Both the position numbers and the translations under genes were made by a program. 64,000 bases of DNA. It comes from Ignavibacteriales bacterium (GTDB taxonomy: Bacteria; Bacteroidota; Ignavibacteria; UBA10030). Under the pieces are notes generated by a model. The model searched no databases. It was not told the origin of the DNA and saw only the letters and a program-made list of their open reading frames with translations. The DNA is taken from positions 5,342 to 69,341 of the forward strand of contig JACPUH010000012.1 of NCBI GenBank assembly GCA_016192345.1, in the 5' to 3' direction. Positions 1-42,322 of the stretch are shown in pieces (within the stretch, counting starts at the first letter, position 1; each line of letters begins with the position of its first letter).

Positions 1-422
1 GGGGTTTTCTTCAAATTCCGTGAAAACACATTCATGGAAATTTGCTGGACGAGTCGAAGACAATTCTCAAGATGAAGTCGCACAAGTTATGCGGTATATC
101 TTGGAGAAGGGTTGATGCTACCTTACAGCGTTGAGAAAGAATTTGTTCGAAAGAGTTAGATGGGACTCACGCACCTTCGTGAGGCGACTCCTCGAAAGCG
201 TCCAGCAAACAGAAACCCTCGGCATGCTCTCTCCTACCCTCCTCACTCCATCGCACGCGACATCGTGAATTGGTTTCGTACACAGAGATACACCTGAGAA
301 CCGATCCGGCGGGGACCCGTTGAACTCCCCTTTCTTGCACTTCGTCCCCTTTCTTTTTACTATGACATCGGCAATTCGGCCGGTGTGCATCATCCTTTAT
401 CACCTTGGATTCAGGGGACTCT

Positions 423-2555: not shown

Positions 2556-2601
2556 AGAGACGGGAAGTAGCTTTCCTCCTTCTGAGAGTTGGTTGCCCTT
2601 T

Positions 2602-3855: not shown

Positions 3856-3967
3856 AGAAGACTGTTCCCATGCTGATTGCTCTTGAGCATGTGTTGCAAC
3901 AAAATAAAGTTGTTGGCGGAGCGTTGAATGCTTGCTTCCTGAAGTTGTTCCGAAGGGGGGCGCGACT

Positions 3968-5062: not shown

Positions 5063-5075
5063 GGTACTCCGCCGG

Positions 5076-7220: not shown

Positions 7221-7265
7221 GACGTTGCAGTGCTGGTCGGAATCATGGTTGCTCCACCGCGCTCC

Positions 7266-9065: not shown

Positions 9066-9071
9066 GGTGTT

Positions 9072-9917: not shown

Positions 9918-10074
9918 GACTAATCTCCGAATGCCTTTCCCAAAAAGTAATTTGGTTTTTTCACCGCGAAGGACGCAGAGTGCGCCGAGAACTCAGTTGT
10001 CAAATTAGCAATTCTTGCTCTGCGATCTCCGCGCCTCTGCGGTGAGAATACAAGGTTTTTGATTTGGATCGGCA

Positions 10075-10962: not shown

Positions 10963-11181
10963 GAACACGCTGCGACCTCTGTCTCTTACGGTATCATTGA
11001 TGGCAAACCGAGTCTTCAACAGTTATCATCAGACTCGTGGAAGTGTCCCTCAATCGACTTGGGTTTTAACTGCAAAGGTCTCAGAGGATACGCAAAGCAA
11101 TGTTTCCAAAATATTTCTCTGTGTCCTCTGTGTCTTTGCGGTAATTTCCTTCCCCGCGTAGGCCCTACCAGCACAGATAGT

Positions 11182-12435: not shown

Positions 12436-12467
12436 GAGTTTCTTCAAAGATGGTGCGGTGCTGTTGT

Positions 12468-14774
12468 TCACATGTCTCCAAATTTCCTGAACACAATTTG
12501 ACTTGCTCCCGCCTCGTGTGTGATGCGGACGCTCCGGTTGACACGTGAAAACTCCTCACCCGGAGCCCAACTCCCTTCGGCGCCGCTGTTGGTGTACTTA
12601 TACTCCAGGTCGATCCCGGGAGGGAGCCGCAGTTCGATCGTCCAGATCCCATCTTCCTTCTCATCGCCATGGGTCCCGTCATCATACATTCTGATCTTGT
12701 TCGGAGTCCAGTTCCCAAGGAGTTCGTGATTGCCCGCGATGAAGATCGCTTTGGGGACAGCGAGATCACGGGCATCGACCTGAAACAGGACCGTGACGAG
12801 GTCCGGCCGGCTTTGTGCCATAGCCCCCTGGGCCTTTTGCGGGGTCGTTGTTCCTTCCCGGATGACCGGCTCAAACGTTCGGACCGGGATGGTCCCACCC
12901 GCCCGTCCGGCGAATTCATAGATGTTGTTAAGATGGGTCCTGAAGGCCACATCGAACGGTTTATCACCGGCAGGAGCGTTCTGATCGTTTCCGTACCACC
13001 AGAACCAGTCGGATCCCTCGGCGGCGTACATCGACTCCCAGGCACGATACGTGTACCACGCTTTTGTATTTCTCTGCGGTGCTCGGGCTTTTGGATCGGG
13101 TTGCGGCAGTCCGGAATTCGCCAGGTCGGTCCGTGCCTGCAGGAGATATTCCCACGCCCGGTTCTCCTCCCCCTCCCCGATCCACGTGTCATAGTTCCCG
13201 TTGATCCACGACCCCGGCCAGAGCCGTTCGAGTTTGTCCATCCCCTCAACAGGATGTGGGGAGATCCTCCGCCCGGGATTCCCCCGGATGTATTCCGTCA
13301 TTGTTGTGGTCACAAGTCGACCATCTTCCTGCAGCTTTGAGAGTTTCCGGTAGAGTGCACGGAGAAACGCCTTGCCGTCATTATCACGGCGGTAGTGTTC
13401 CCATGCGTTCTCGCCATCGAGAATGACGGTCAGCAAGCGGTCTGTTTCCCCTTCCGCCGGCGCGTAGCGAAGAATATGCTCGATGAAATCATCAGACGCC
13501 TCTTCGCCGGTGTATTGCTGATAGACAAATCCGATTTTATCCGAAAGCTCGGTGTCCCGGAACACGATGGCGACGGAGCTCTCCATTCCGTTCCCTCCCG
13601 AGAGAGCGTACGGAAAGTACTTCGGTCGCCCTTCCGGTTGGGATCGTGCGAGGATCTTCTCGTCGGTTGCCACCCACCGGATACCGTACTTTGCGAAGAC
13701 GGCAACGACGTCCTGGGCCACGGACCCTTCCGCGGGCCACATCCCGGTCGGCCGCATGCCGAATTGTTTCTCGAAAAACGTGACGGCTTTGGCCACCTGC
13801 GCCTCGGCGTCCATCGGAAAATGAAACCGTGCGGGCAGGGGGACATCCGGCTGGCCGGCTTTTGCAAGATCGCTGTCGTAGATCAAAGGAAGGATCGGGT
13901 GGTAGTACGGCGTCGTGATCACCTCGACCTGTCCGTGATGGCTGACCGGGTCGTACATCAGTTTCCTGTGCATCGGAATGATCGCTGCAAGAACCTTGTA
14001 GGTTTCGGCGACGATCCGATTGCAGTCGTCTTCGCTAACGGTGTTCTTCAATCGGTAAGTTCCATCGCCCTCCCGGGAGACCAGGTCGGTCAGGTCGACC
14101 GTGTGGCCGTTGACCAGCGTGATCTTGCCTTCGAGGAAGTCGGGATCAAAATACGCAAGGTAGAACCAGAATTTAATCTCCCTGAGCTCCTGTTCGCTCA
14201 GGCCCTTTGCACCGACCGCCTGAAAACGATCCCTCAGAGCCTTGTACTCCGGAAACCGGTCAATCATGACATCGCTCAAACCGAACGCGTTCCAGACATT
14301 GGTGAGGAGATGCTGCCGGTCCTTCTCGTCAAAATCTCCGGTCTGTTTCAGAGCGAGGTCGATCCAGGGATCCGTTTTCCCTCCGAACGCGGCGAAGTAA
14401 CGCCTGGCGCTGACCCGGTTTTTCTTCCCGTCCACGAACGATTTCAGCCGCCGAACGTAATATTCATCGAGCTGCTGCAGCAACGAGGAGGTGAGGTTGA
14501 CGTTGAAGTGAATATCGGGATACTGTTGGAGGATCGACACCATGTCGTAGTAATCCTTCGTACCGTGGGTCCTGACCCACGGGCCCTGAAGCTGGTCGGT
14601 GGCCGGATCAAGGTAGAGAGGCTGGTGTTGATGCCAGATGATGTTGAGGTACAGAGGTTTGCCGGCCTTCGGATGTTCATCCGGCACAGGCGTAACCCCC
14701 GATGGCTGGGATTGAGCCAAAGCGATGAAAGCGAAAGCGGAGAGAAGAAAAGAACGTTCCAGGATATTCAACAT
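12468..14774 (-). CDS. GH57 family enzyme with C-terminal CBM20-like starch-binding module
   Basis: IIWHQHQP...HGTKDYYDM motifs of GH57. C-terminal module AGNHELLGNWTP...EYKY. Signal peptide from ATG at 14774 (MLNILERSFLLSAFAFIALA). Confidence 0.8.
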   Translation of the reverse strand: MLNILERSFLLSAFAFIALAQSQPSGVTPVPDEHPKAGKPLYLNIIWHQHQPLYLDPATDQLQGPWVRTHGTKDYYDMVSILQQYPDIHFNVNLTSSLLQQLDEYYVRRLKSFVDGKKNRVSARRYFAAFGGKTDPWIDLALKQTGDFDEKDRQHLLTNVWNAFGLSDVMIDRFPEYKALRDRFQAVGAKGLSEQELREIKFWFYLAYFDPDFLEGKITLVNGHTVDLTDLVSREGDGTYRLKNTVSEDDCNRIVAETYKVLAAIIPMHRKLMYDPVSHHGQVEVITTPYYHPILPLIYDSDLAKAGQPDVPLPARFHFPMDAEAQVAKAVTFFEKQFGMRPTGMWPAEGSVAQDVVAVFAKYGIRWVATDEKILARSQPEGRPKYFPYALSGGNGMESSVAIVFRDTELSDKIGFVYQQYTGEEASDDFIEHILRYAPAEGETDRLLTVILDGENAWEHYRRDNDGKAFLRALYRKLSKLQEDGRLVTTTMTEYIRGNPGRRISPHPVEGMDKLERLWPGSWINGNYDTWIGEGEENRAWEYLLQARTDLANSGLPQPDPKARAPQRNTKAWYTYRAWESMYAAEGSDWFWWYGNDQNAPAGDKPFDVAFRTHLNNIYEFAGRAGGTIPVRTFEPVIREGTTTPQKAQGAMAQSRPDLVTVLFQVDARDLAVPKAIFIAGNHELLGNWTPNKIRMYDDGTHGDEKEDGIWTIELRLPPGIDLEYKYTNSGAEGSWAPGEEFSRVNRSVRITHEAGASQIVFRKFGDM

Positions 14775-14778
14775 ATCG

Positions 14779-17613
14779 TTAGCGAAGTACCATGAGTTTG
14801 CGAATTGCGGTAAAAGCCCCGGCCTGCAGGCGGACGAAGTAAATGCCGCTCGGCATGGCGTGTCCATTCACATCCCTCCCGTCCCATATCGCTCCATGGC
14901 GACCGGGATTCATTTCTCCTTCCTTCAAGGAGACCACTTCTTCACCGAGAAGCGTATACACCTTGAGGCTGATCGAGGCCGTCCGAGGAATGCTGTATTC
15001 AATTGTCGTGGTCGGGTTGAAAGGATTCGGATAGTTCTGATGCAGCGCAAACGCCGAGGGAGTCCCTTCGGTTTGCCGTTCGACCGACGTGGGGATCCCG
15101 AGCTCGGCATTTCTCCTGTTGGAGAATACACGGGCCGTATATTCCGGAATCGTTATCGAGGGAAGGGGGACCGTCGGCACGGTGAGGATACTTTCGTCAA
15201 ACACATCGTACCAGGTCCCGCTGGAGAGCCACGGAACATTCGCCATGGTTCTGGGAACCCCGCTCAGGTTTGCCACCACCATGACACCGGCGTTGCTCAC
15301 CGTATCCTCCAACGCCCACACAAGAACGCGTTCGGTTACGTAGCGCCCAAGCTTTCGGAGAACGCCGCTTGTGAGAGCGGGATTCAGTGTTCTCTGAAGG
15401 ATCAGCGATCGGTAATGGTTGAAGTGCGCCTGTCCACGCTCTGTAGACAAGAGGGACCATTGGAGCGGACGATAGACGAGCTTCTGCCCGTCCGAACTCC
15501 ACCCTCGTGGTTCAGCCCACTCCATTCCCTGCCAGAGCATCGGGATTCCGAGCGACGTGAACAAGAAGGTCGCATACAGTTTATCTCTCTGCACCGCCTC
15601 CCCGATCGCGACACTCTGAAATGCGTTCATCTCGTAGATGAGCGACTGCTCGTCATGCGTCACGGTGGCGTTCACCGGCTCCGTTCTTCCGGAGTATCGG
15701 TCGGGTATCGACGGCTGGTCATTGCTCGTATAGGCTCCGAGGTTGAGGACGAGTTCCTCAAGCGTTGCAAGATCCCTGTTCCGGAAGCGGGCCTCATCGA
15801 AGAGTTCGTCCCGAAAACTGTCATGCCATCCACCCGTCAGCCCGCTATGATAGATCAGGGCGGGACTTTCCGGAAGATGCTCCGCTATTTGGTATACGCT
15901 GTCGCCGTATTCAGTGGCGATGCGATTCGCCCACCCCAGGATACCCCTTGTTGGGTCGCGCGTGTCCCATCCAATGCCTTGTGTAAAATCATAGCGAAAG
16001 CCGTCGACCTTGTAAATGTCGAGCCACATCTTGAGAGATTGGTAAACGATTTCCTGGGTTTCGTTCGTCCAATGATCCATGTCCTTGAAGAAGAAGAGCG
16101 CGTCTTCGTTGAACCGGGAGTCGTTCTGCCGTTTGAAATACGGGTTGGCATCTTCGTCGGGTTGCATCTGCCAGAGGGGGCTCGTGTCATTCAGATGATT
16201 GAAAACCACGTCGACGATGACGGCAATGCCGCGTGCGTGTGCCGCGTCGACGAGCGCCTTGAAGTCGCGGGGAGTTCCGTAGACAGGCTCAAGAGCAAAG
16301 TAGCTGTTCAGGTCGTATCCCCACGAGTGGCCTGACCGCCCCACGGCCCCGTAGTCGTTCACCGGCATCAGCTCGATCGCGTTGACCCCCAGGGAATCCA
16401 GGTGCGGCAGGAGTTGCCGGAGATCGGCAAAAGTCCCCGGCTGGGAGGAGGAGCGATTGAAGAAGCCCCCGCCAAATTCCCCCACGTTCAGCTCATAAAT
16501 GACAAGCCGGTCCATGGAGGGACGTTCATAGCCGGTGGTCTGCCATGCATAATCATCGGCCGTCAGCCCCTCGGGTCCGACGGTAAAGCGGGTTCCCTGA
16601 TCGCCGGTATATCGCCCCCAGGGATCGTAGAGGAGCTTCCCGTCTTCGAGTTCATAGCGGTACTCATACGTACCGGGATTGAGTTTGAGGTTCATCCACC
16701 AGTCGTCGCCGGAGGAAACGTTTTTCCGCATCACGATGGCAGGAGCGGTCGCCACCGGCTGGCCCGCCGGGGCGATGCGCAGGAGAACGTAGGCTTTATC
16801 CCGGACACGCAACCGGAACGTCGTGGAATCTCCCCACACCGGTCCCTGCAGTGTGACACCATGGCCGGTGTTGCCCGGCATCAACATCCGCGGAACAACG
16901 TACCCCCCCTTCGCGAGGACCACGGAGTCCCCCTTGTCGTTGTAAGCAACGAGACGAATGTAATTGGTCTTCGGGATGGGCGCGAGGGGGGTGTACGAAA
17001 AAATTCTTCGCGTCCGGTCGAACGAGGAAATCACCTCCGCCGTCGGTAATGTGCTCGACACTTCCGCGCCGGTGGAGAAGAGGATGGATACGATGCTGTC
17101 CGCATTCGCATGGGGAAGGCCAGCAACGATCCGGGTGATTTCGCTCCCCGACTCCTGTTGGTACTGCTCGAACCAGAACAGACGGGTGAGACGCAGAACC
17201 GAATTGTTATTGTCGTTCGGGTTCGTTTCGGGATTCAGGGGATCGGACATCCACCCGGCATCCACCCCGCCACGATTGAATTTATACTGATAGACGGAAT
17301 CACCCATGCGCCTCGACTGATCACTTCCATCCTTGATTTTAAAGGTGAGGGTTTTGATCCACGCTGCATGCGATGCGTCGTAGGTCATGCGGGAGATCGC
17401 GGAGTTTGGCGTCCATCCATTGAATTCCCCCGGAAGATAGAAGGTCGTCGAGGGAGATTCGTGGCTTCTGAACGTGACGGTAATACTGTCCGCTCTGGTC
17501 TGGGCGGGGAGGGTGAGCGGTAGAAGACCCGCCGCTGCACCGAGCACCACCGACGCCAACCATGGCTTAGTCCGGTGGAATTGACGACTCCTGAATATGA
17601 GGCGGAGGATCAC
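14779..17613 (-). CDS. secreted GH13 alpha-amylase/pullulanase-like enzyme with N-terminal CBM-like modules and T9SS type-A C-terminal sorting domain
   Basis: GH13 motifs GIAVIVDVVFNH, GFRYDFTQGIG. N-terminal FNGWTP...YQYKF CBM-like module. C-terminal NYPNPFNPTTTIEYSIP...GIYFVRL T9SS CTD. Start uncertain: track start 17655 is TTG and overlaps the upstream small ORF; GTG at 17613 gives a plausible signal peptide. Confidence 0.8.
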   Translation of the reverse strand: MILRLIFRSRQFHRTKPWLASVVLGAAAGLLPLTLPAQTRADSITVTFRSHESPSTTFYLPGEFNGWTPNSAISRMTYDASHAAWIKTLTFKIKDGSDQSRRMGDSVYQYKFNRGGVDAGWMSDPLNPETNPNDNNNSVLRLTRLFWFEQYQQESGSEITRIVAGLPHANADSIVSILFSTGAEVSSTLPTAEVISSFDRTRRIFSYTPLAPIPKTNYIRLVAYNDKGDSVVLAKGGYVVPRMLMPGNTGHGVTLQGPVWGDSTTFRLRVRDKAYVLLRIAPAGQPVATAPAIVMRKNVSSGDDWWMNLKLNPGTYEYRYELEDGKLLYDPWGRYTGDQGTRFTVGPEGLTADDYAWQTTGYERPSMDRLVIYELNVGEFGGGFFNRSSSQPGTFADLRQLLPHLDSLGVNAIELMPVNDYGAVGRSGHSWGYDLNSYFALEPVYGTPRDFKALVDAAHARGIAVIVDVVFNHLNDTSPLWQMQPDEDANPYFKRQNDSRFNEDALFFFKDMDHWTNETQEIVYQSLKMWLDIYKVDGFRYDFTQGIGWDTRDPTRGILGWANRIATEYGDSVYQIAEHLPESPALIYHSGLTGGWHDSFRDELFDEARFRNRDLATLEELVLNLGAYTSNDQPSIPDRYSGRTEPVNATVTHDEQSLIYEMNAFQSVAIGEAVQRDKLYATFLFTSLGIPMLWQGMEWAEPRGWSSDGQKLVYRPLQWSLLSTERGQAHFNHYRSLILQRTLNPALTSGVLRKLGRYVTERVLVWALEDTVSNAGVMVVANLSGVPRTMANVPWLSSGTWYDVFDESILTVPTVPLPSITIPEYTARVFSNRRNAELGIPTSVERQTEGTPSAFALHQNYPNPFNPTTTIEYSIPRTASISLKVYTLLGEEVVSLKEGEMNPGRHGAIWDGRDVNGHAMPSGIYFVRLQAGAFTAIRKLMVLR

Positions 17614-17626
17614 GGTGGCTCGCCGG

Positions 17627-17806
17627 TTAAAATAGTGTGTAGATAAAAGGGGCAAGCGCGGAACCTTCCGTCAGGACGATGAGGAGACTCAGGAGCATCA
17701 GCACAACAATGATCGGGCCCAGCCACCATTTCTTCCGGACTTTCATAAAGCCCCAGAGTTCTCCCACGATCCGCAACCGGGACTTGGCGTGTTTGAGAAA
17801 TTTCAT
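17627..17806 (-). CDS. unannotated 59-aa small membrane protein, SxtK-like (DUF5989-type) carbamoyltransferase-associated protein
   Basis: Hand-translated, below track cut-off: MKFLKHAKSRLRIVGELWGFMKVRKKWWLGPIIVVLMLLSLLIVLTEGSALAPFIYTLF. KVRKKWWL-PI and APFIYTLF motifs match, from memory, the small protein co-occurring with NodU/CmcH carbamoyltransferases. Confidence 0.5.
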   Translation of the reverse strand: MKFLKHAKSRLRIVGELWGFMKVRKKWWLGPIIVVLMLLSLLIVLTEGSALAPFIYTLF

Positions 17807-18155
17807 ATCCTGAATCCTTTCCGCAATCGTTTACCAGACGCTGATGAACTCTTTATTATTTGCCACAAAGGGAAAAATCTTTTTCATGGGATCAACCATC
17901 GCCAAAGGCTGTGGCTTTTTTTTCCGTTGATTTTTCCCGCGAAACACACTAAACACACGAAATCAGATTTTCCCTTTCGCGTTTTTCGCGCCTGGCCCGG
18001 CATGTTTTGGCCGGGGTGTTTCGTGGGCAACTCTTTTCTGTTCCCTTGACCTGTTCGTAGACCGGAAAAGATTGCCGGCAATGCCGAACGTCCATAACGA
18101 CTGCCAGAAGCAGCGGGTTTTCACGTTGCGCTCCATTGAGACCTCTTCTCCAACG

Positions 18156-19895
18156 TCAGTCGGGGTCAAAGCGTTCTTCGAACTGTTCCTGCTTCCATTC
18201 GTTGCCCATCAATTTCTTCTCGAGGATGAAGCTCCCCATAACCAGGGCATCCATATCCGTACGCATGAAACAGCGCCACGCCTCTTCCGGCGTGCAGACA
18301 ATGGGTTCACCACGAACATTGAACGACGTATTGATCACCACGGGGCATCCGGTTTGCCGGTCGAATTCCTTCAGGAGATCGTAGAACAACGGGTGTTGCT
18401 TCCGATTGACGGTCTGCAACCGGGCCGAGCCATCGATATGCGTGACGGCCGGTATCTCCCTCTTCTCCGGCCGAACATCGGCGACGAACAGCATGAACGG
18501 GCTGGGTCCCTCGAACTCAAAATATTCGCTTGCCCGTTCCTCCAGGACCGCGGGAGCAAACGGCCGGAAACTCTCACGGAATTTGATCTTCAGATTCACC
18601 ACCGATTGGTTCCGCGGATTACGGGCATCGGCAAGGATGCTGCGGCTTCCCAGCGCGCGCGGTCCAAACTCCATCCGTCCCTGAAACCAGCCGACCACGT
18701 GCTGTTGCGAGATGAGTTCCGCGGTCTCCTTCAGCAGTTGTTCCCGTCCGCATGTTCGGAACGGTATCCCTTTCTCACGAAGGAAGGCGCCTATGTGATC
18801 GTCCCCGAATTCGGGACCCAGGAACGCGTCCTCCATCACAAAAGTCCTGGCGTTCTTCAGAAGTGTGTTGTGCACAAAGAAGGCCGCACCGACCGAACCG
18901 CCTGCGTCCCCGGCCGCCGGTTGTACGAAGATCTCCCGGAACGAGGTTTCCTCCAGCACCTTGCTGTTGGAGACGCAATTCAGCGCGACACCCCCTGCCA
19001 TGCAAAGGTTTTTCATCCCCGTCTCCCGCTCCGCCTGACGGGCCATCTGAACAACGATCGTATCCGTTGCCTTCTGGAGAGAGGCCGCAACATCCTTGTG
19101 GAATTGCCCGAGGGGGGACTCCGGATTCCGTCTCGGCTGTCCGAAGAGGGTCTCGAATTTCCTCCCCGTCATGGTCAGGGCATGGTGATAGGTAAAGTAT
19201 TTCATGTTGAGCTTGAAGCTTCCATCCGGCTTGAGCGAGACGAGTTCCCGCATGATGAGGTCGTACCACCGGGGTTCGCCGTAGGGAGCCAGCCCCATCA
19301 CCTTGTACTCTGCGCTGTTCACCCGGAACCCGAGATAATAGGTAAAGGCGGAGTAGAGCAACCCGAGGGAATGGGGAAAATGGATGGAGCGGGACAAATG
19401 AATATCATTGCCGCGTCCGTATCCCAGCGTCGCCGTTTCCCACTCCCCCACACCGTCGATCGTCAGGATGGCCGCTTCCTCAAACGGACTGACAAGAAAG
19501 GCGCTTGCCGCATGAGCGGTGTGATGATCGGTGAACAGGACCTCCCCCTCGTACCCCAGCTCCCGCTCGATGGTTTGCGGGATCCACATCTTCTCTTTCA
19601 GCCACACCGGCATCGCCTTAAGATAGGGGAGGTAGCCGAGGGGAAACGTGGCGAGCGATGTGAGGAGGATCCTTTCAAACTTGACGAAGGGCTTGTCATA
19701 GAACGCCACATAGTCAAGGTCGGAGACCGATATCCCCGCCTCCCGGAGACAGGAGTGAATGGCGTTCGTCGGGAAGCCGGGGTCGTGACGTTTCCGGGTA
19801 AAGCGTTCCTCCTGGGCCGCTGCGACCAGCGTTCCGTTCTGCACCAGCGCCGCCGCAGCATCGTGGTAGAAGCATGAGATCCCGAGGATGTTCAT
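18156..19895 (-). CDS. carbamoyltransferase, NodU/CmcH family
   Basis: 579 aa. N-terminal ILGISCFYHDAAAALV, full-length similarity to O-carbamoyltransferases (N-terminal ASKHA-like plus C-terminal YrdC-like domain). ATG verified. Confidence 0.85.
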   Translation of the reverse strand: MNILGISCFYHDAAAALVQNGTLVAAAQEERFTRKRHDPGFPTNAIHSCLREAGISVSDLDYVAFYDKPFVKFERILLTSLATFPLGYLPYLKAMPVWLKEKMWIPQTIERELGYEGEVLFTDHHTAHAASAFLVSPFEEAAILTIDGVGEWETATLGYGRGNDIHLSRSIHFPHSLGLLYSAFTYYLGFRVNSAEYKVMGLAPYGEPRWYDLIMRELVSLKPDGSFKLNMKYFTYHHALTMTGRKFETLFGQPRRNPESPLGQFHKDVAASLQKATDTIVVQMARQAERETGMKNLCMAGGVALNCVSNSKVLEETSFREIFVQPAAGDAGGSVGAAFFVHNTLLKNARTFVMEDAFLGPEFGDDHIGAFLREKGIPFRTCGREQLLKETAELISQQHVVGWFQGRMEFGPRALGSRSILADARNPRNQSVVNLKIKFRESFRPFAPAVLEERASEYFEFEGPSPFMLFVADVRPEKREIPAVTHIDGSARLQTVNRKQHPLFYDLLKEFDRQTGCPVVINTSFNVRGEPIVCTPEEAWRCFMRTDMDALVMGSFILEKKLMGNEWKQEQFEERFDPD

Positions 19896-19897
19896 CG

Positions 19898-20149
19898 TCA
19901 GAACTGCCTTTTACTTTGTTCCAGGGTCGGATCGACCGGCTCCCTCGCCTTCCAGTAACTTCCCTCGCCGCCAAGGCGACGATCCAGGTGGTCCTTTCCC
20001 AGCAGGCGTAGCACGAGAGCCACCGGAGCCAGCAGGAGAACATAGACGAGCGTCAGGATGATACGCGTATTGACATAGGCAAGTGCCCTGGCGAATTGCA
20101 TCCACCAACGATAGAGGGTGGAACCGAGTTTTTGAAGTCCCTGCTTCAT
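19898..20149 (-). CDS. small membrane protein, SxtJ-like carbamoyltransferase-associated partner
   Basis: 83-aa product from ATG at 20149 (MKQGLQKLGSTLYRWWMQFARALAYVNTRIILTLVYVLLLAPVALVLRLLGKDHLDRRL...). Ends 3 nt before the carbamoyltransferase start. The N-terminal 112 aa of the track ORF is low-complexity and unlikely coding. Confidence 0.45.
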   Translation of the reverse strand: MKQGLQKLGSTLYRWWMQFARALAYVNTRIILTLVYVLLLAPVALVLRLLGKDHLDRRLGGEGSYWKAREPVDPTLEQSKRQF

Positions 20150-20339
20150 GGTGATCCGGTCATCCGAGCGACGATGAAAAAAATACTGCGGCAACAACCC
20201 CGCTCCCTTCAGTGCACTCCTTTGCTCTTCGGGAGAAAGAGGGGTTCGTGCCGACAATTTGATTTTCAGACAAATACTTGATATTGTTCCGGCGTCATCG
20301 ATCCTGCCTTCACCATCACTCTTCGAAAGCTCACCCTGC

Positions 20340-22343
20340 GTGCGGCGTTCACGTTCATCACAACCACCCCCTTCTTCTCCCCCCACCTCCTCCCGGCGAA
20401 CCCTCTTTTCCCTTGCAACCCTCGCAATACCGATTCTCTTCTTTGTGCTCCTCGAAGGTTCTTTGCGCCTGCTTGAATACGGCACCGATCTTTCTCTCTT
20501 CGTCGAGGAAGAGATCGATGGAACATCCTACTGGATCATGAACCCCGATCTGAAGTCACGCTACTTTGCGCGCACCGGCTTCAGTCCGAACATGTCGACC
20601 GATTACTTCCGCATCCCCAAACCGGCCGGAACGTTCCGGATCATCTGCCTGGGCGGATCAACGACCATCGGATTCCCCTACGGCCAGAGCGGTTCGTTTG
20701 CGGCGTTCCTGCGGGAGCGTCTCCGGGCCGTCTTCCCCGGACGGACTATCGAGGTTATCAACCTCGGCATGACCGCCACCAACAGTTTTACGGTCAACGA
20801 CCTTGTCCGAGATCTTGAAGCGATCGAGCCGGACCTCCTCATGGTCTATGACGGGCACAACGAGTTCTACGGCGCCCTGGGAGTGGCTTCGAGCGAATCG
20901 CTCGGATCGCGTGGACTGACGAAAGCCTATCTCCGCCTGATCCACCTCAAGACATTTCAACTTCTTCGCAATCTTCTTGCCGATGTGTTCCGGGGCGAAG
21001 AGCATCGTCAGCCGGCGGGGACGATGATGGAACGCCTGGCCCGGGGCTCGGCTATCCCCTTTCGGGGCGACCTCTATAACCGGGCACTCGGCTACTTTCG
21101 GGAAAATCTTGAAGAGCTCCGGGAGACAGCCCTGAAGCAAAACATCCCTTTGATCGTTTCTACTCAGGTTTCCAATCTGCGCGATCAGCAGCCATTTCTC
21201 TCCGGGGGAAATCCCGACCTCGCCCCCGGTCCACGGGAAAGTGTTGAACGATCCCTTACCGCCGCCGCAGTCCTGGAAGGATCCGGCAAACGCCGTGAGG
21301 CGGTTCGACAGTATGAAGAAGCAATCAAGGTCGACTCGATGCAGGCCCGGGCGCATTATCGCCTCGCCCGGAACCTCGATACGCTCGGGGAACGGTCAAG
21401 AGCCCGGACGCATTACCAACGTGCGCGGGACCTGGATGAACTCCGGTTCCGGACGAGCAGCGACTTCAACGACGCTATCAGAGCGCTGGAGGTTCCCGGC
21501 CGGGTGATCCTGGCGGATCTTGAGGGGACGTTCGCCGCCCATTCCCCCGATTCCATCACCGGGTCCAACCTGATCCTCGAGCATCTCCATCCCAACCTCT
21601 CCGGAAGCTTTTTGATGGCCCGGGAAATCGCCTCTCTCATGCGCCGCTCTCAACTCCTGGGGACATCGGGGGAATGGCTCGCCGCGGATACCATCAGCGA
21701 TGCAACTCATTGGAGCAGACGCCTGACAACCCCCGTCGACGAACTGGCGGCCCGAAAGAGAATTGCCCTTCTCACCTCGGGATTTCCCTTCGGGCCTGCC
21801 GAAGCTCAGGCGTACACCCCTCCTGCCGACCCGCGCCTCGCCCTCATTGTGGACGAGCTTGTGGGAGGGCGCTCCACGTGGGAAGAAAGCCACGTCCGGG
21901 CGGCAGAGTACTTCGATTCCCTCAACGACCTTGAGAATGCCGCAACGGAGTACCGTGCCCTGGTGTATCAACTCCGCTACAATACCTCCTCATACTATCG
22001 GCTGGCCATAGTCTACGCCAGGGGGAAAAAGATCCGGGAGGCACGCGAGATTCTTTTCGAATCACTTCTCATCGACTCCACGTCGCTGGCGTTCCAGCTC
22101 CTCGGTCGGATAGCGCTGGAACACGAGGGGGCGGAGGCGGGGATTCCGTTTCTTGAAAAGGCATTCTCCCTCAGCAGTACCGTTGACGACCGCGCGGAGT
22201 GCGGGTACTTCCTGGCCCTTGCCTATGTTCAGGCCGGCAGGGCCGAACAAGCGGTCGAGCCGCTCGACCATGTTCTTCGCGTCAAGCCGGATTTTCCCGC
22301 CGCCAGGTCGCTCCGGGACCGAATCGGAAAGAGAGCACCATGA
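20340..22343 (+). CDS. membrane-anchored SGNH/GDSL-like hydrolase domain protein with C-terminal TPR repeats (paralog A)
   Basis: N-terminal TM helix, IICLGGSTT and DGHNEFYG blocks, C-terminal TPR-like repeats. Start inferred as GTG at 20340 by alignment with paralog B (VRRSRSSQPPP vs MSRSASPPPP). The track ORF has no ATG before the conserved region. Confidence 0.6.
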   Translation: MRRSRSSQPPPSSPPTSSRRTLFSLATLAIPILFFVLLEGSLRLLEYGTDLSLFVEEEIDGTSYWIMNPDLKSRYFARTGFSPNMSTDYFRIPKPAGTFRIICLGGSTTIGFPYGQSGSFAAFLRERLRAVFPGRTIEVINLGMTATNSFTVNDLVRDLEAIEPDLLMVYDGHNEFYGALGVASSESLGSRGLTKAYLRLIHLKTFQLLRNLLADVFRGEEHRQPAGTMMERLARGSAIPFRGDLYNRALGYFRENLEELRETALKQNIPLIVSTQVSNLRDQQPFLSGGNPDLAPGPRESVERSLTAAAVLEGSGKRREAVRQYEEAIKVDSMQARAHYRLARNLDTLGERSRARTHYQRARDLDELRFRTSSDFNDAIRALEVPGRVILADLEGTFAAHSPDSITGSNLILEHLHPNLSGSFLMAREIASLMRRSQLLGTSGEWLAADTISDATHWSRRLTTPVDELAARKRIALLTSGFPFGPAEAQAYTPPADPRLALIVDELVGGRSTWEESHVRAAEYFDSLNDLENAATEYRALVYQLRYNTSSYYRLAIVYARGKKIREAREILFESLLIDSTSLAFQLLGRIALEHEGAEAGIPFLEKAFSLSSTVDDRAECGYFLALAYVQAGRAEQAVEPLDHVLRVKPDFPAARSLRDRIGKRAP

Positions 22344-24370
22344 GCCGTTCTGCGAGTCCTCCGCCCCCGACCTTCGGATCCGTGACGAAAGAGAGAATTT
22401 TCCGCGGCGTTCTCCTTCTCATTCCGTTTCTCTTCCTCGCCCTCCTGGAGATGGGCCTGCGCCTTCTGGAGTATGGGGGAAACCTCGACCTCGTCGTGAC
22501 GCGCCGTGTGGGAAACCGCGACGTCTATTCCATCAACCGCAGTGCTGCCGCCCGCTACTTTTCCACCGCGGGGACTGTCATTCCCGAGCCCGCGGACGAC
22601 GTGTTTGAAATGGTGAAATCCGATTCGACGATCCGCATCTTCTGTCTTGGCGAATCGACGATGGCCGGCTTTCCCTATGATTTCAACGCAACGGCCCCCG
22701 GTTTTCTTCGCGACCGGCTCCAGATGCGGTATCCCGACAGGAAGATCGAGATCATCAACCTCGGACTCTCCGCTTCCAGCAGTTATATCGTTCTCGATTT
22801 CGTCGAAGAACTCCTCGCCTATCAACCGGATCTCTTCATCATCTATCTCGGTCACAACGAGTTCTATGGCGTGTATGGCGCCGGCTCTTCGGTCCGGATT
22901 CCGGGCGGACACCATTTGACCCGGTTCACCATCGAACTTCTGAACTTCAAGACCTATCTCCTGTTGCGGGACGGCATTGCATGGGTCCGCCAGTCCATCG
23001 CCAGCCCCTCTTTACGGCCGGGGGCAACCCTGATGGAGCAGATGGTCAGGGAACAACATATTCCGTATGGGAGCCCGCTCTATGGCGCCGCACTGGATGC
23101 GTATCGCGACAACCTTTTCCGCATCATTGGGGCGGCAAAAACAGCACGGGTGCCGGTCATGTTCAGCGACCTCGTCAGCAACGAAAAGGACCACCCGCCG
23201 TTTCGGCCGGTCTTTAACGAAACCACGGTCGAGGCCGTTCGGGACGAATGGAGGGGCCTCTTCAGCAAAGCAGAGAGTCTTGCCTCACAACGGCGGTTTG
23301 CCGAAGCCCTTGAGACCTACCGACGATGCATGCAACTGGACTCTCTGAATGCATCGGCAGTGTATGCGACCGGCTTGCTGGAATACGACCGCGGCTGGTA
23401 CGACGAGGCGAGGACCCTGCTGCAACGCGCAAAGGACCTCGATGCACTCCGGTTCCGGGCCTCCGAAGACTTCAAAGCCGCCTTGCGTGCCGTCTGCAAA
23501 GAGACGGGCACCGTTCTTGCTGAAACCGACTCTGCATTTCGCGCCTCTTCACCCCACGGCATCATCGGGAAGAACCTGATGCTCGAACACCTGCATCCGA
23601 ACCTGGACGGCTATATTCTGATGGCGGACGTCTTTGCCCGGACCATCCTGGAACGAAAAATCCTTCCAGTGGAGGATACTGCACCTCCCGCAACTCCGGG
23701 GGACAGCTCCGAACTGTATCGCCGGTCGGGCGCCACCATCTTCGACGAGACCGTCGGAAGAATCCGTGTCGAGATACTGACACGGCAGTGGCCCTTCCAG
23801 TCACGCGAAACGCCCTTTCTGTTCGAGCCTTCGAATCCCCTTGAACGGATCGTCTACCGGTATATCGATGGAACTCTCTTCTGGTCGACGGCCCGCTACG
23901 AGCTCGCCGACTATTTCGCGGCTTCCAGGGACTTCGAACGGGCGCGGCTCGAATGCCTCGCCGTCGCAAAGGTCATTCCCTATTCCTATCAACCGCTGCT
24001 GCGCGTCGCCGACTATTACCGCATGGAAGGAATCATCCCTGCTGCCGCGGCCGCATACCGACGGTGCATCGCCGTGGAGGACAATCCCTTTGCCCGCTTT
24101 AAGCTTGCCATCCTCCTGCTCGAAGGAGAGCAGGCCCGTGAGGCGATCACACACCTCGGCGAGGGACTCAAACTCTCCTCCAGGCCCGGAATGAACATCA
24201 GTCCCGAGGCCGTGGTCACCAGTCACTACTTGTTGGGGGTCGCGTACGCCAAACTCGGCCAGTGGGCCCTCGCGAGCAAGGAACTCGAGCAGGTGCTCTC
24301 GCTCGATCCCCATCACGCGGACGCCCGAAGCCTTCTTCAACAAATCGCGCATTCCCCCGTCATCCGCTGA
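22340..24370 (+). CDS. membrane-anchored SGNH/GDSL-like hydrolase domain protein with C-terminal TPR repeats (paralog B)
   Basis: Paralog of the upstream gene (IFCLGESTMAGFPY, LGHNEFYG, TPR C-terminus). ATG at 22340 overlaps the paralog A stop (ATGA), so likely translationally coupled. The track extension from 22199 is rejected. Confidence 0.65.
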   Translation: MSRSASPPPPTFGSVTKERIFRGVLLLIPFLFLALLEMGLRLLEYGGNLDLVVTRRVGNRDVYSINRSAAARYFSTAGTVIPEPADDVFEMVKSDSTIRIFCLGESTMAGFPYDFNATAPGFLRDRLQMRYPDRKIEIINLGLSASSSYIVLDFVEELLAYQPDLFIIYLGHNEFYGVYGAGSSVRIPGGHHLTRFTIELLNFKTYLLLRDGIAWVRQSIASPSLRPGATLMEQMVREQHIPYGSPLYGAALDAYRDNLFRIIGAAKTARVPVMFSDLVSNEKDHPPFRPVFNETTVEAVRDEWRGLFSKAESLASQRRFAEALETYRRCMQLDSLNASAVYATGLLEYDRGWYDEARTLLQRAKDLDALRFRASEDFKAALRAVCKETGTVLAETDSAFRASSPHGIIGKNLMLEHLHPNLDGYILMADVFARTILERKILPVEDTAPPATPGDSSELYRRSGATIFDETVGRIRVEILTRQWPFQSRETPFLFEPSNPLERIVYRYIDGTLFWSTARYELADYFAASRDFERARLECLAVAKVIPYSYQPLLRVADYYRMEGIIPAAAAAYRRCIAVEDNPFARFKLAILLLEGEQAREAITHLGEGLKLSSRPGMNISPEAVVTSHYLLGVAYAKLGQWALASKELEQVLSLDPHHADARSLLQQIAHSPVIR

Positions 24371-24412
24371 GAAGGAAAAGAGGAAAACCAACCGGGCCTT
24401 TCCCCTTTTCCC

Positions 24413-24446
24413 GAGGCCGTCCAAAAGGTACCCTTTGGACGGCCTC
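24413..24446. terminator. perfect 13-bp inverted repeat hairpin between convergent genes (candidate bidirectional terminator)
   Basis: GAGGCCGTCCAAA-aggtaccc-TTTGGACGGCCTC, lying between the end of the + strand SGNH/TPR gene and the end of the - strand T9SS CBM protein gene. No clear U-tract. Confidence 0.45.
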
Positions 24447-24475
24447 TCTCAACGTATTATACGTTCGACTGCATC

Positions 24476-26365
24476 TTACTTCAACAGCACCATCCGTTTC
24501 ACTTCCCGGAAGAGTCCGGCCCGCAGCTCGTAGAAATACACACCCGTCGGCAGCGACGAGGCCTCGAACAGCGTCACGTGATTCCCCGCCGGCTGAATCT
24601 CATTGACCAGGTCGGCCACAACTTGCCCGAGCAGGTTGAAGACCCGGAGTCGGACCTGTTCCTGCTGTGGCAACGAGTATTTGACATGGGTCGATGGGTT
24701 GAACGGATTGGGGTAGTTCTGGAAGAGGGTGAAGACCCCCGGAGTTCCCACGGCGATGTCATCGTCAATGCCCGTCAGACCGTCAAAACTTTCGACGGGC
24801 ATCGGGGCATTCTTCTGCCACACATCGATCGGCAGCGTGTACGTCCGTGGAAATGTCTGCGATGAAAGCGGACGTATGAACCGCGAACGGTAGGGAGCCT
24901 GAACGCCCAGTCCTCCGCCTTCGGAGACCGAACCGGTCCCCGTCCCGCCATGCACATAGGTCATGGTGTACTGCAGGTTGTAGTGGGCGGGCCCGCGGAT
25001 ATTCATTCTTCCTGAATAAATGGAATCGCCGGCCACTGCATCGGGGGCGAGCCCGTCATCCTTGAGAACGAGATCCGGTGGATTGCCCTGGAAGGACTTC
25101 TGGAGGGCATCCTGCCAGGTGATTTTCGCCGTATCGACACCGCGAACGAAGGGATCGATGTAGGCCATGGCCGGCCGCATATCGTACCGGAAAACCACGG
25201 TCACCGTATCCCCCGTCTTGATCGTCCCGGCCAACGGAATGCTGCTGAACCGAAACGCGGGGGTCTGCAGATTCCCTCCGGCCCCGAGGTTGAACTTCCT
25301 GTTGCCATCGCCGCTTTCCGACGGATGGTCGTAGGCAAATCCATCTCTCGTGCTGGTGGACCCGCTGTGGATGTACCCCGGGAACCTCGCTGTGGCTCCC
25401 GCGGAATCGAAATCGATGAAGAACTTGAAATCGAGATTGTCGAACGTTCCGCCGGTATAGGGGATCGCAACCTCGTACGTCTCCGTTCCCGGGACGCGTA
25501 TCATCTTCGTCCCCCCCCAGCTGTTGAACGCTCCGCGCACCTCTATGGAGTCGCCGTTCGATCTCTGGAACCATCCCATGGTGGCGAAGGTCGACATATC
25601 CACGCGCCACAGGATCGATCCGCTAGTGGGCGTATTGACAACCTCATCGGCGTCAAAATAGGTGAGGTTCACCGAGCCGCCCCCTGTCGGAACCGTATAC
25701 GTCTTGTTATCGCCCCCCTCCCAATCCGATCCGCCCCGCGGGGTCTTCAGATACTTATACTGGATCTGCGTTCCTTCCAGCATCGTGACCGATTTGGAAT
25801 AGATGCTGTCGGTGGCCCCTTTCTTGAGGGTATCGGTTGAGTTCCCCCAATCGTTGAAGCTCCCTGCCACGCGGACGATATCCCCGCTTCCCGGCAGGAA
25901 ACTTTCCTCGAGCATTTTCACGCGCATATTCACGCGGAAGGTGACCGCAACATTAGCCGCGGGCGTAAACACCGAGTCGTTGTCAAACCAGACGACCGGA
26001 AGCGTTTGGGCTCCCGCAACGACCGTGTACGTCTTGTTGTCCCCGCCTTCCCAGTCGAGACCGCCTCGCAGGGTTTTTAGAAACTTATATTGAATGCTTC
26101 CGGCAGCCAGGGAGACGGTTTTTGTGTAAATGCTGTCGCCCGGGCCGGAGGATTTCAACGTATCCGTTGAGTTCCCCCAGTCATTGAAGCTCCCTGCCAC
26201 CCGGACAATATCTCCGGCGCCGGGATTAAATGTCCCCTCGCGCATCTTGATGCTCATATTGACGCGAACTGTCACACTGTTCTGCGCTTCGACGACGGCG
26301 TCAAAAGCGATCGGAACAATGAAGATGGCGAAGGCGAGACAAGAGTAGAGTATGTTCCTACGCAT
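24476..26365 (-). CDS. T9SS-secreted surface protein with tandem CBM20/CBM48-like starch-binding modules (non-catalytic, SusE/F-like role inferred)
   Basis: Signal peptide. Two near-identical ~109-aa modules (VRVAGSFNDWGNSTDTLK...IQYKFLKT / IQYKYLKT) plus a third degenerate module (VRGAFNSWGG). No catalytic motifs. C-terminal T9SS CTD NYPNPFNPSTHVKYSLP...GVYFYELRAG. Confidence 0.7.
   Translation of the reverse strand: MRRNILYSCLAFAIFIVPIAFDAVVEAQNSVTVRVNMSIKMREGTFNPGAGDIVRVAGSFNDWGNSTDTLKSSGPGDSIYTKTVSLAAGSIQYKFLKTLRGGLDWEGGDNKTYTVVAGAQTLPVVWFDNDSVFTPAANVAVTFRVNMRVKMLEESFLPGSGDIVRVAGSFNDWGNSTDTLKKGATDSIYSKSVTMLEGTQIQYKYLKTPRGGSDWEGGDNKTYTVPTGGGSVNLTYFDADEVVNTPTSGSILWRVDMSTFATMGWFQRSNGDSIEVRGAFNSWGGTKMIRVPGTETYEVAIPYTGGTFDNLDFKFFIDFDSAGATARFPGYIHSGSTSTRDGFAYDHPSESGDGNRKFNLGAGGNLQTPAFRFSSIPLAGTIKTGDTVTVVFRYDMRPAMAYIDPFVRGVDTAKITWQDALQKSFQGNPPDLVLKDDGLAPDAVAGDSIYSGRMNIRGPAHYNLQYTMTYVHGGTGTGSVSEGGGLGVQAPYRSRFIRPLSSQTFPRTYTLPIDVWQKNAPMPVESFDGLTGIDDDIAVGTPGVFTLFQNYPNPFNPSTHVKYSLPQQEQVRLRVFNLLGQVVADLVNEIQPAGNHVTLFEASSLPTGVYFYELRAGLFREVKRMVLLK
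25620..26270. repeat. intragenic tandem duplication (2 x ~327 bp) encoding the two near-identical CBM-like modules
   Basis: The repeated peptide VRVAGSFNDWGNSTDTLK recurs 109 residues apart. Antisense ORFs at 25803 and 26130 share VEFPQSLKLPATRTISP, confirming near-identity at nucleotide level. Unit boundaries approximate. Confidence 0.6.
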
Positions 26366-26464
26366 TGCCTCCTCCTTTATTGAAATGGATTGAAGTGTGA
26401 ATTAGGCACAATCAAATGGAACAAAGTCGTTTTCCGCACCCTCCTTTCATGGACAAGATGATGG

Positions 26465-31254: not shown

Positions 31255-31294
31255 ACGTGAATAACCGGGGCGGTATGGCCCGGTGTACTTCCTG

Positions 31295-33994: not shown

Positions 33995-34015
33995 GAAAGA
34001 ACCTCCCTGAGCATG

Positions 34016-37572: not shown

Positions 37573-37594
37573 ACGTTTCTTCCTATGCCGTTCA

Positions 37595-41609: not shown

Positions 41610-41612
41610 GAG

Positions 41613-42311: not shown

Positions 42312-42322
42312 TCGCCTTTTCC

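Follow-up and report, generated by a model that had tools for sequence, protein, structure and literature searches.

A typical copy of a conserved carbamoyltransferase, SxtJ and DUF5989 gene set inside a starch locus of an Ignavibacteriales bacterium

An O-carbamoyltransferase (CT), a membrane protein of the SxtJ family and a small DUF5989 membrane peptide together form a conserved gene module found across more than 15 phyla. The locus described here, from a 64,000-nucleotide stretch of Ignavibacteriales DNA (the window), is a typical copy of this widespread and already catalogued bacterial gene set; only a 314-nt insertion and its siting inside a starch locus are atypical. As to what the module does, our best guess, which we would put somewhat below even chances and which draws on sequence and gene neighbourhood, is that the CT, tethered to the membrane, O-carbamoylates an envelope glycan or a lipid-linked precursor and that periplasmic SGNH/TPR enzymes edit the result.

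Layout of the locus

The three open reading frames (ORFs) of the module lie on the minus strand, at the positions given in an earlier note on this DNA and with the same translation of the smallest: a short-form SxtJ-family membrane protein (19898–20149; 83 aa; PF19588 match), a CT of the NodU/CmcH/TobZ type (18156–19895; 579 aa; Carbam_trans_N and Carbam_trans_C) and a DUF5989 single-pass membrane peptide, a candidate SxtK-type protein (17627–17806; 59 aa; PF19451). The 83-aa ORF is indeed directly 5' of the CT gene, but the gap of 3 nt once reported between them is 2 nt when the bases between the SxtJ stop codon and the CT ATG are counted. Two SGNH/GDSL-like proteins with TPR domains are transcribed divergently from the trio on the plus strand: protein A (20259–22343 as the longest ORF; Lipase_GDSL_2 and several TPR families) and protein B (22340–24370; 676 aa, the length at which it is also called; Lipase_GDSL_2 and TPR families). 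On the other side, 13 nt past the DUF5989 stop, begins a T9SS-tailed alpha-amylase (14779–17613, minus strand; 944 aa; Alpha-amylase and Por_Secre_tail domains; among the called genes in L085), which opens the starch operon downstream and is context, outside the module.

The DUF5989 ORF begins 349 nt past the CT stop. The spacing of about 350 nt in the earlier note was thus measured well, but it is not a feature of the module: it is due to a strain-specific insertion of 314 nt (17837–18150, minus strand), present in three independent assemblies and missing from 98%-identical relatives (L081 and L084), in which the CT stop overlaps the upstream ATG of the DUF5989 ORF. What type of element is this insertion? 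A repeated miniature mobile element (MITE) was rejected because there are no further copies in the window or in loci L001–L084, and a known RNA was rejected because the only Rfam match is a sub-threshold one to a nematode snoRNA model and the insertion folds no better than shuffled sequence (z-score −0.76). Promoter and terminator matches within the insertion are not above those in shuffles, and an exact metagenome match to its hairpin was not found.

The DUF5989 peptide

The 59-aa ORF is a real gene, as judged from its family match, its many homologues and its pattern of codon conservation. Length alone is uninformative, as 81 ORFs of at least 40 aa occur in 10 kb and 59 aa is not above chance, and the absence of this ORF from the ORF track reflects a list cut at 60 aa. 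Against Pfam DUF5989 (PF19451), the peptide scores 88.8 bits (cut-off 27; E 2.4e-25) over model positions 2–49 of 49, and it retains the RKKWW and GSALAPFIY motifs, which are invariant columns in the DUF5989 alignment. The profile check proposed earlier for both small proteins gave matches above threshold, to DUF5989 for the 59-aa peptide and to SxtJ for the 83-aa protein. Large protein searches returned 1798 to 2794 homologous clusters, and among 81 DUF5989 genes the mean pairwise identity by codon position is 0.69, 0.89 and 0.43, which argues for purifying selection on the protein. The description of the ORF as previously unannotated did not hold: an identical NCBI protein exists (HYZ01_01735, hypothetical protein [Ignavibacteriales bacterium]), and gene callers find the ORF in three independent Logan assemblies.

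The peptide consists of an N-terminal amphipathic helix, the RKKWW motif, a transmembrane helix at residues 28–46 and an invariant C-terminal tail, GSALAPFIYTLF. An AlphaFold model (mean pLDDT 82) has helices at 2–23, 29–45 and 52–58. Of its two flanks, the N-terminal one has four lysine and arginine residues and the C-terminal one has none, which predicts an N-in, C-out topology. Literature searches returned no mention of DUF5989, and structure searches no solved structure of DUF5989 or SxtJ.

The carbamoyltransferase and its SxtJ-family neighbor

The earlier assignment of the CT to the NodU/CmcH family is borne out by two full-length Pfam domains, the Kae1-like Carbam_trans_N (residues 3–338; model 2–345 of 346; E 5.8e-93) and the YrdC-like Carbam_trans_C (residues 392–560; model 1–170 of 170; E 7.5e-75). 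Among proteins of known structure, the carbamoyltransferase 7xb6_A is matched at E 8e-108, and NovN, GdmN and TobZ are also matched, down to 3e-83. The protein carries the HD, HHxxH, DGxGE and GDAGG motifs that are conserved and invariant across trio-clade CTs, as well as GPRALGxRS, which is listed with the catalytic and metal-binding motifs of the enzyme. Residues H11, D12, H124, H125, H128, D147, G148 and D330 are invariant among 14 trio-clade CTs, and we take them to be equivalent to the catalytic and metal-binding residues of TobZ. In TobZ-type chemistry, carbamoyl phosphate and ATP yield carbamoyl-AMP, from which a hydroxyl group is O-carbamoylated. TobZ, NovN, GdmN and 7xb6 share the two-domain architecture of the window CT over its full length; to our knowledge, these solved carbamoyltransferases use soluble antibiotics and work without membrane partners. 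Trio-clade CTs, in contrast, add a conserved C-terminal tail of about 19–20 aa that ends in ELD or PD and, unlike TobZ, NovN, GdmN and 7xb6, are always encoded with SxtJ. The window CT is 53–73% identical to the CTs of 48 loci from many phyla, and identity in the CT clade is 50–73% across more than 15 phyla, with a Peregrinibacteria metagenome-assembled genome (MAG) included; this is unusually high for a tailoring enzyme and implies a shared acceptor.

The 83-aa protein is SxtJ-like at the level of the family, as had been proposed, but not in its full form. It matches PF19588 with 46 bits (cut-off 24.4; E 9.2e-12) only over model positions 54–98 of 99, and is a truncated-architecture variant that lacks the two N-terminal helices of the 133–147-aa SxtJ. 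Where the SxtJ gene precedes the CT gene, as in 23 loci, it is of this short type; where it follows the CT gene, the protein has about 140 aa. Its sequence runs from an N-terminal tryptophan-rich amphipathic segment through a hydrophobic span at about 29–47 to a charged tail ending in RQF, with W16 and W66 the most conserved positions in an alignment with 46 homologues. Both flanks of the hydrophobic span are positively charged, which leaves the orientation ambiguous, and a single-sequence structure model predicts one long helix, uninformative on topology. All 46 SxtJ matches in the genome sample fall in loci with a CT, and an SxtJ gene is present in 65 of 66 evaluable CT loci.

Conservation of the trio

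The wide co-occurrence suggested earlier is borne out by two samples. In a CT-anchored metagenome sample, the complete trio occurs in 58 of 66 evaluable loci and in three gene orders (J-CT-K, CT-J-K and J-K-CT, where K is the DUF5989 gene), and the persistence of the set despite such rearrangement speaks for a functional link. In a DUF5989-anchored genome sample, CT and SxtJ accompany the peptide in 48 of 80 loci, from Ignavibacteriota, Bacteroidota, Acidobacteriota, Myxococcota, Nitrospirota, Planctomycetia, Spirochaetales, Melainabacteria, Peregrinibacteria and others; according to a genome scan, a MAG of Melioribacter roseus (L078) carries the trio as well. The commonest Pfam families among 107 trio neighbors are GDSL (9), exosortase EpsH (4), GT2 (4), epimerase (3), EpsI/DUF3485 (3), GT1 (3) and DegT (2).

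The association of DUF5989 with the CT therefore stands, but its exclusivity does not, as the CT is absent from 27 of 75 evaluable DUF5989 loci, about a third. It is thus conceivable, if rather unlikely, that SxtJ is the sole true partner of the CT and that DUF5989, as a small membrane protein of general use, has a role of its own, possibly tied to carbamoyl-phosphate or pyrimidine metabolism or to the membrane anchors of SGNH enzymes. The neighbors of CT-less DUF5989 genes fit such a role: they include carA (L010, L012), carB (L058), pyrD-cdsA (L012), an exosortase gene (L011), SGNH genes and, in six Latescibacterota loci, genes for PRPP synthetase and a phosphoribosyltransferase. (A recurrent neighbor cluster, c4, was considered as carB and rejected, as it consists of histidine kinases and sigma-54 regulators.) DUF5989 sequences from CT-less loci are indistinguishable from CT-linked ones, with the same core in every context; the peptide is more conserved than its partners, with a median cross-phylum identity to the window's proteins of 70% as compared with 58.5% for the CT and 39% for SxtJ; and 7 of 66 CT-plus-SxtJ loci have no adjacent DUF5989 gene. 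What speaks for a dedicated subunit is the adjacency itself, kept in those 58 CT loci whichever of the three orders is used, and it may also be that DUF5989 genes without a CT and CT-SxtJ pairs without DUF5989 are split loci of the same genomes.

The starch locus

In the window, the module sits inside a starch island of about 38 kb with T9SS-tailed amylases, a CBM20 protein, a PorV-like protein and an esterase-CBM20 fusion. Glycosyltransferase and export genes were not found in the window, and the immediate context is starch catabolism. In FCB-group lineages (Ignavibacteriota, Bacteroidota and KSB1), SGNH/TPR and DUF5989 genes recur in starch-utilization loci; in eight loci (L001, L014, L023, L035, L036, L039, L051 and L076) they are linked to genes for a maltodextrin transporter, an amylase or PorV, whether CT-SxtJ is present or not. 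Could the module serve the starch/T9SS locus, either in alpha-glucan modification or de-esterification or in modifying the surface anchor of T9SS amylases? The position within the island and the recurrence of the linkage in loci whose solute-binding proteins are only 41–59% identical speak for such a use. We nevertheless regard it as unlikely, since no starch linkage was seen in the CT-anchored sample or in non-FCB phyla, so that the linkage would represent at most a lineage-specific use, or retained synteny.

The SGNH/TPR proteins

A gene with an SGNH domain is a frequent fourth member of the module, present in 18 of 80 and in 27 of 80 loci, often co-oriented and directly adjacent or even between CT, J and K (L046, L141, L146). 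The adjacency that had been pointed out in this window is thus a recurrent pattern and not chance. In the window, proteins A and B are paralogues (34% identity over 686 aa; E 1e-109), and the ATG of B overlaps the stop codon of A by 4 nt. Lipase_GDSL_2 is matched by B above the cut-off of 32.9 bits (44 bits; E 4.5e-11) and by A below it (30.3 bits); the GxS(T) and (D/E)xxH signatures are present in the sequences, as LGGSTT and LGESTM for block I and as LEHLHPN for block V. The longest ORF of A has a predicted transmembrane window at residues 49–67, an N-terminal anchor that would be cut if the protein began where gene callers start it, at 20445 (632 aa). A GTG start at 20340 (667 aa) probably fits homologue lengths better; homologues of 616–708 aa adjoin the trio in other loci. 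Searches of solved structures with protein A returned TPR matches only, and sequence does not discriminate between hydrolysis and transfer for these proteins. With a length of 630–680 aa and TPR domains, they are distant from the SGNH type of about 400–455 aa that lies beside CT-J-K operons (27% identity over 128 aa to the 455-aa protein of a Melainabacteria CT-J-SGNH-K operon). Three relatives of this Melainabacteria type, one of them from the cyanobacterium Dapis, lie in polysaccharide loci without the trio, so this SGNH family also occurs outside the module. None of the five proteins has a PADLOC match, and a defense-system reading was rejected on that ground.

The module can be compared with the O-acetylation systems PatA/PatB, AlgI/AlgJ/AlgF/AlgX and OatA, in which a donor side in the cytoplasm is encoded together with membrane components and with a membrane-anchored SGNH protein outside the cytoplasm. 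By analogy, the CT with its two small membrane proteins and a periplasmic SGNH/TPR terminal transferase may form a trans-envelope relay that carbamoylates an extracytoplasmic glycan; we think this distinctly unlikely. In its favor are the interleaving of SGNH genes in the operon and four CT-less loci (L039, L059, L069, L076) in which DUF5989 directly adjoins SGNH genes. The TPR domains, a typical feature of polysaccharide machineries in the periplasm, also count for a relay. The likeness is in the logic of parts only, an analogy and not membership: homology to the module was not found beyond the SGNH fold, the group is carbamoyl and not acetyl, and SxtJ and DUF5989, with one to three predicted helices, offer no polytopic conduit like the MBOAT/AT3 proteins, which the window lacks. 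Moreover, SGNH genes are missing from about two thirds of the sampled trio loci, and we know of no carbamoyl carrier. A bolder form of the idea, to which we give the same slim chance, is that CT, SxtJ, DUF5989 and an anchored SGNH(/TPR) protein could be an unrecognized trans-envelope machine that writes, and possibly erases, O-carbamoyl groups on a conserved extracytoplasmic glycan or lipid. It would be the carbamoyl counterpart of MBOAT/AT3-plus-SGNH O-acetylation, with DUF5989 as the element that couples the cytoplasmic and periplasmic enzymes, and in the FCB group it would be wired into starch/T9SS loci.

Relation to the saxitoxin and suomilide clusters

The same gene set is known from toxin and natural-product clusters. 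In the saxitoxin cluster, sxtI, sxtJ, sxtK and sxtL are adjacent,(PMC2679770) and in the Nostoc suomilide cluster J, K and L are clustered, with two SGNH genes following sxtJ/sxtK,(PMC10157211) a doubling also seen in the window. A 2025 review treats SxtI/J/K only as a presumed complex,(PMC12300590) in line with the earlier statement that the trio has no assigned function outside toxin clusters. These cassettes share with the window a NodU/TobZ-type CT, a Pfam-SxtJ protein, a peptide of about 54–59 aa and adjacent GDSL/SGNH genes; they differ in that the window has no toxin or NRPS cluster. That this locus is a tailoring cassette within some secondary-metabolite cluster, saxitoxin-like or other, is highly improbable for all the shared genes, as Pfam scans of the large ORFs in the window returned no domains of PKS, NRPS, amidinotransferase or sxtA/G/B/D/S/T/U type, and the CT identity across phyla fits poorly with the diverse acceptors of natural-product pathways.

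The SxtK-like label for the DUF5989 peptide comes from size and position. The sxtK gene is 162–165 nt long and directly 3' of sxtJ,(PMC2679770, PMC7073992) and its suomilide homologue, bslS, is 165 nt long and begins at the end of sxtJ. DUF5989 ORFs of 52–57 aa hold this position in CT-J-K operons, at 23 plus 35 loci, whereas the window, with its order J-CT-K and an ORF of 59 aa, departs from the arrangement. None of the 240 matches listed for two queries, the window peptide and a 52-aa Melainabacteria form, is named SxtK, nor is any of 988 relatives of the Melainabacteria operon SGNH protein named SxtL, and a search of the literature for the peptide motifs found nothing.

Proposed role and significance

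How, then, might the module work? In the reading that we tentatively prefer, carbamoylation of an envelope glycan or precursor at the membrane, a cytoplasmic CT of the TobZ/NovN/SxtI type would make carbamoyl-AMP and O-carbamoylate a hydroxyl group, while SxtJ, always beside the CT, and DUF5989, usually so, would keep this enzyme anchored on the inner side of the cytoplasmic membrane. It would act on a conserved acceptor close to the membrane, most probably an envelope glycan that is nascent or lipid-linked, and the SGNH/TPR proteins, for which a periplasmic orientation is predicted, may remove or edit a carbamoyl or acyl group on the same molecule, the role that has reportedly been proposed for SxtL. 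The tethering and the periplasmic editing are suggested by predicted topology together with gene context, and from that context we infer the glycan. SxtI is the only member of the family for which a substrate has been proposed, and this substrate is a soluble alkaloid and not a glycan, which counts against this part of the proposal. The window's setting in starch catabolism, with neither glycosyltransferase nor export genes, and the DUF5989 loci that have no CT speak against the proposal as well.

For the window itself, the significance is modest, as its genes are already catalogued. For the family, our results suggest that the three or four genes form a module older than its use in toxin clusters, which spans phyla, probably has a conserved acceptor and was borrowed by those clusters. 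SxtJ and SxtK are said to have been presumed partners of SxtI in saxitoxin pathway schemes since 2008, and a module resolved in a non-toxic, culturable carrier would explain the carbamoylation step of saxitoxin. Such work could also reveal a new carbamoyl modification of the bacterial envelope.

The locus and its protein families

Three genes on the minus strand of the window encode, in order of transcription, an 83-aa SxtJ-family protein (19898..20149), a 579-aa NodU/CmcH/TobZ-type O-carbamoyltransferase (CT; ORF coordinates 18156..19895) and a 59-aa DUF5989 protein (17806..17627). The SxtJ stop lies 2 nt ahead of the CT ATG, DUF5989 begins 349 nt past the CT stop, and 13 nt past the DUF5989 stop a 944-aa T9SS-tailed alpha-amylase starts on the same strand (GTG 17613); the longest ORF of the amylase (TTG 17655) runs into the end of DUF5989, and gene callers prefer the GTG. 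Upstream of this trio and divergent from it are two overlapping genes for SGNH/GDSL proteins with TPR repeats, A (20259..22343, plus strand) and B (22340..24370, plus strand); A and B are paralogous, sharing 34% identity over 686 aa. The called start of A, 20445, would cut its transmembrane helix; GTG 20340 looks more plausible.

At the level of sequence, family membership is established for each member of the trio. CT has complete Pfam Carbam_trans_N (E 5.8e-93) and Carbam_trans_C (E 7.5e-75) domains and aligns end to end with the solved carbamoyltransferase 7xb6_A (E 8e-108); NovN, GdmN and TobZ are further solved carbamoyltransferases that align with it. The 83-aa protein is a Pfam SxtJ member by score and not by architecture, as its above-threshold match covers just model positions 54-98 of 99, the C-terminal half. 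The 59-aa protein matches DUF5989 over its full length (E 2.4e-25). The earlier note, which had recognized a carbamoyltransferase, an SxtJ-like protein and a small CT-associated protein here, thus read the genes well. Its description of the 59-aa ORF as previously unannotated does not hold, since the ORF is already catalogued: NCBI lists the identical sequence from an Ignavibacteriales MAG, labelled a hypothetical protein, and gene callers find it in three independent assemblies. ORFs of this size are common by chance (81 of at least 40 aa within the 10 kb); that this one codes for protein follows from the Pfam score, the 1798 to 2794 homologous clusters found in protein searches, and identities of 0.69, 0.89 and 0.43 at the three codon positions across 81 genes.

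What might the two small proteins look like? Our search found no solved structure for either, and DUF5989 is not mentioned in the literature searched. The single hydrophobic span of DUF5989 (residues 28-46) is preceded by four K+R residues and followed by none, so an N-in, C-out orientation is predicted; its AlphaFold model (pLDDT 82) comprises an amphipathic N-terminal helix, a transmembrane helix and a short C-terminal helix bearing the invariant GSALAPFIYTLF. In SxtJ, basic residues flank the hydrophobic span on both sides by our hydropathy and charge reading, and a single-sequence structure model was uninformative on topology. At their C-terminus, trio-clade CTs (metagenome loci L092-L171 and the window) share a conserved ~20-aa tail with ELD or PD as its last residues, before which the solved homologue 7xb6 stops short; the tail, encoded in the window at 18156..18212 and ending in PD, is a candidate docking element.

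In two relatives (comparison loci L081 and L084, DUF5989 98% identical) gene order is exactly as in the window, and the CT stop overlaps the upstream ATG of the DUF5989 ORF. Aligned with them, the window shows 314 nt cleanly inserted at about 17837..18150; this insertion is absent from both relatives and uncouples DUF5989 from CT in this strain. Three separate Logan assemblies also carry the insertion, which is therefore no assembly artefact. It has no second copy in the window or loci L001-L084 and no credible Rfam match, its folding is no more stable than that of shuffled sequence (z -0.76), and its hairpin has no exact metagenome match.

Conservation of the trio

We sampled loci with two anchors, DUF5989 and CT. 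A DUF5989-anchored search with one genome per species returned at least 579 loci, and among the best 80, which span more than 15 phyla and whose ORFs were assessed by profile searches, CT and SxtJ adjoin DUF5989 in 48; about 5 of the others are cut too near the gene for judgement. Two orders occur: short SxtJ (~85 aa), CT, DUF5989, the window's own type, and CT, long SxtJ (~140 aa, extended at the N-terminus by two helices), DUF5989, matching sxtI-J-K. A reciprocal metagenome scan anchored on CT (80 loci, CT 49-63% identical to the window's) gave 66 loci with sufficient flank, of which 58 hold the complete trio, 7 CT and SxtJ only, and 1 CT alone; here a third order, SxtJ, DUF5989, CT, is present. 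That these genes have stayed neighbours while being rearranged three ways is a good indication that they are functionally linked.

Median identities to the window proteins are 70% for DUF5989, 58.5% for CT and 39% for SxtJ. O-carbamoyltransferases are usually regarded as tailoring-step enzymes; the high cross-phylum identity of CT (53-73%) suggests a shared acceptor. Among the 107 immediate neighbours of the 48 trios, the commonest Pfam families are GDSL lipase (9), TPR (5), exosortase EpsH (4) and GT2 (4), followed by methyltransferases (4), epimerase (3), EpsI/DUF3485 (3), GT1 (3) and DegT (2), with carbamoyl-phosphate synthase large chain at 2; together they point loosely to envelope glycans and carbamoyl-phosphate supply.

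SGNH genes as a fourth member

With the SGNH domain alone as query, homologues appear in 18 of 80 DUF5989-anchored and 27 of 80 CT-anchored loci, mostly co-oriented with the trio and directly adjacent. Some lie in between the other genes: the order is CT-SxtJ-SGNH-DUF5989 in Melainabacteria (L046) and L146, CT-SGNH-SxtJ-DUF5989 in L141, and SGNH-DUF5989-SGNH in L069. In published clusters, sxtL, a GDSL lipase proposed as a decarbamoylase, comes after sxtI-J-K (PMC2679770, PMC2885083); in Lyngbya wollei sxtI is truncated and sxtL missing (PMC3037375); and in the suomilide cluster of Nostoc, sxtI and sxtJ are accompanied by a 165-nt sxtK homologue and two consecutive SGNH genes (PMC10157211). 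Given this recurrence, the window's two SGNH/TPR genes belong to the pattern. Their long type is only distantly related to the ~400-455-aa type (27% over 128 aa), a family with some members in polysaccharide loci that lack the trio. A and B are each anchored by an N-terminal transmembrane segment, and their catalytic domains are predicted to lie outside.

Proposed function and alternatives

What the parts are, how they are coupled and that they are conserved together are matters of observation; for what they do together, we tentatively favour a membrane-tethered CT that carbamoylates a conserved acceptor, with periplasmic SGNH/TPR editing. Cytoplasmic CT would form carbamoyl-AMP and then O-carbamoylate a conserved, membrane-proximal acceptor; SxtJ and DUF5989 would tether CT at the membrane or present it there, an idea based on SxtJ lying beside CT in 65 of 66 CT-anchored loci and DUF5989 usually doing so; and periplasm-facing SGNH/TPR enzymes may edit the same acceptor molecule outside the membrane.

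Could DUF5989 instead be a largely independent small membrane protein? We consider this unlikely. The exclusivity to carbamoyltransferases that the earlier note implied does not hold, however: of the 75 DUF5989 loci that could be judged, about 27 contain none. Such CT-less genes lie directly 5' of carA (L010 and L012, the latter with pyrD and cdsA preceding) or 3' of carB (L058), lie between PRPP synthetase and a phosphoribosyltransferase in six Latescibacterota genomes (L020, L034, L042, L043, L049, L052), precede an exosortase gene in L011 (four other exosortases adjoin complete trios), directly adjoin SGNH genes in L039, L059, L069 and L076, and in Krumholzibacteria are near SDR, GAF and aminotransferase genes. 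The carA, carB, pyrD, cdsA, PRPP-synthetase and phosphoribosyltransferase neighbours hint at a tie to carbamoyl-phosphate or pyrimidine metabolism that would be independent of CT. The core sequence of DUF5989 does not differ between gene contexts, and the CT-less loci, together with the seven CT-SxtJ loci lacking DUF5989, would fit either genomes in which the locus is split or a role of DUF5989 that is in part its own.

We regard a function specific to starch or T9SS in this lineage as quite unlikely. The module does sit inside a single starch/maltodextrin utilisation island (1..38635) with GH97, an esterase-CBM20 fusion, MalK, two GH57 enzymes, three GH13 amylases, a solute-binding protein, two permeases, two T9SS-tailed proteins, a PorV-like protein (26465..27568), an adjoining 1229-aa protein without a Pfam domain (27565..31254, minus strand), a TonB-type outer-membrane protein, a SurA-like PPIase and a LacI regulator. 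The KSB1 locus L076 has a 36%-identical homologue of the 1229-aa protein in the same arrangement, with PorV, PPIase, DUF5989, SGNH/TPR and a sugar transporter and without CT, and DUF5989 and SGNH/TPR are linked to starch or sugar-transport genes in FCB loci L001, L014, L023, L035, L036, L039, L051 and L076. The broader CT-anchored sample does not show this linkage, which therefore reflects lineage-specific use at most, or retained synteny. The CBM20-fused putative esterase (2593..3855, plus strand) might be connected with the SGNH genes; a relative of it comes after DUF5989 in L001, and alpha-glucan-directed esterases would be unusual. Past the island, a respiratory cluster (39666..46472: multihaem cytochrome c, split cytochrome b, cNMP-binding regulator, Fe-S/FAD oxidoreductase) is unrelated to the finding.

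A true trans-envelope relay, in which the SGNH proteins would act as terminal transferases and not as editors, seems to us about as unlikely as the starch or T9SS role.

Among known systems the sxtI-J-K(-L) cassette comes closest; the window copy differs from it in gene order, in its short SxtJ, in the TPR repeats of its SGNH proteins and in having no toxin cluster around it; we infer, from size and position only, that its DUF5989 and SGNH genes are equivalent to authentic SxtK and SxtL. A secondary-metabolite cassette is highly improbable, as Pfam scans find no biosynthetic cluster genes among the window's large ORFs. A defence role is unsupported (no PADLOC matches for the five proteins).

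The locus is one more copy of an already known, uncharacterised module.
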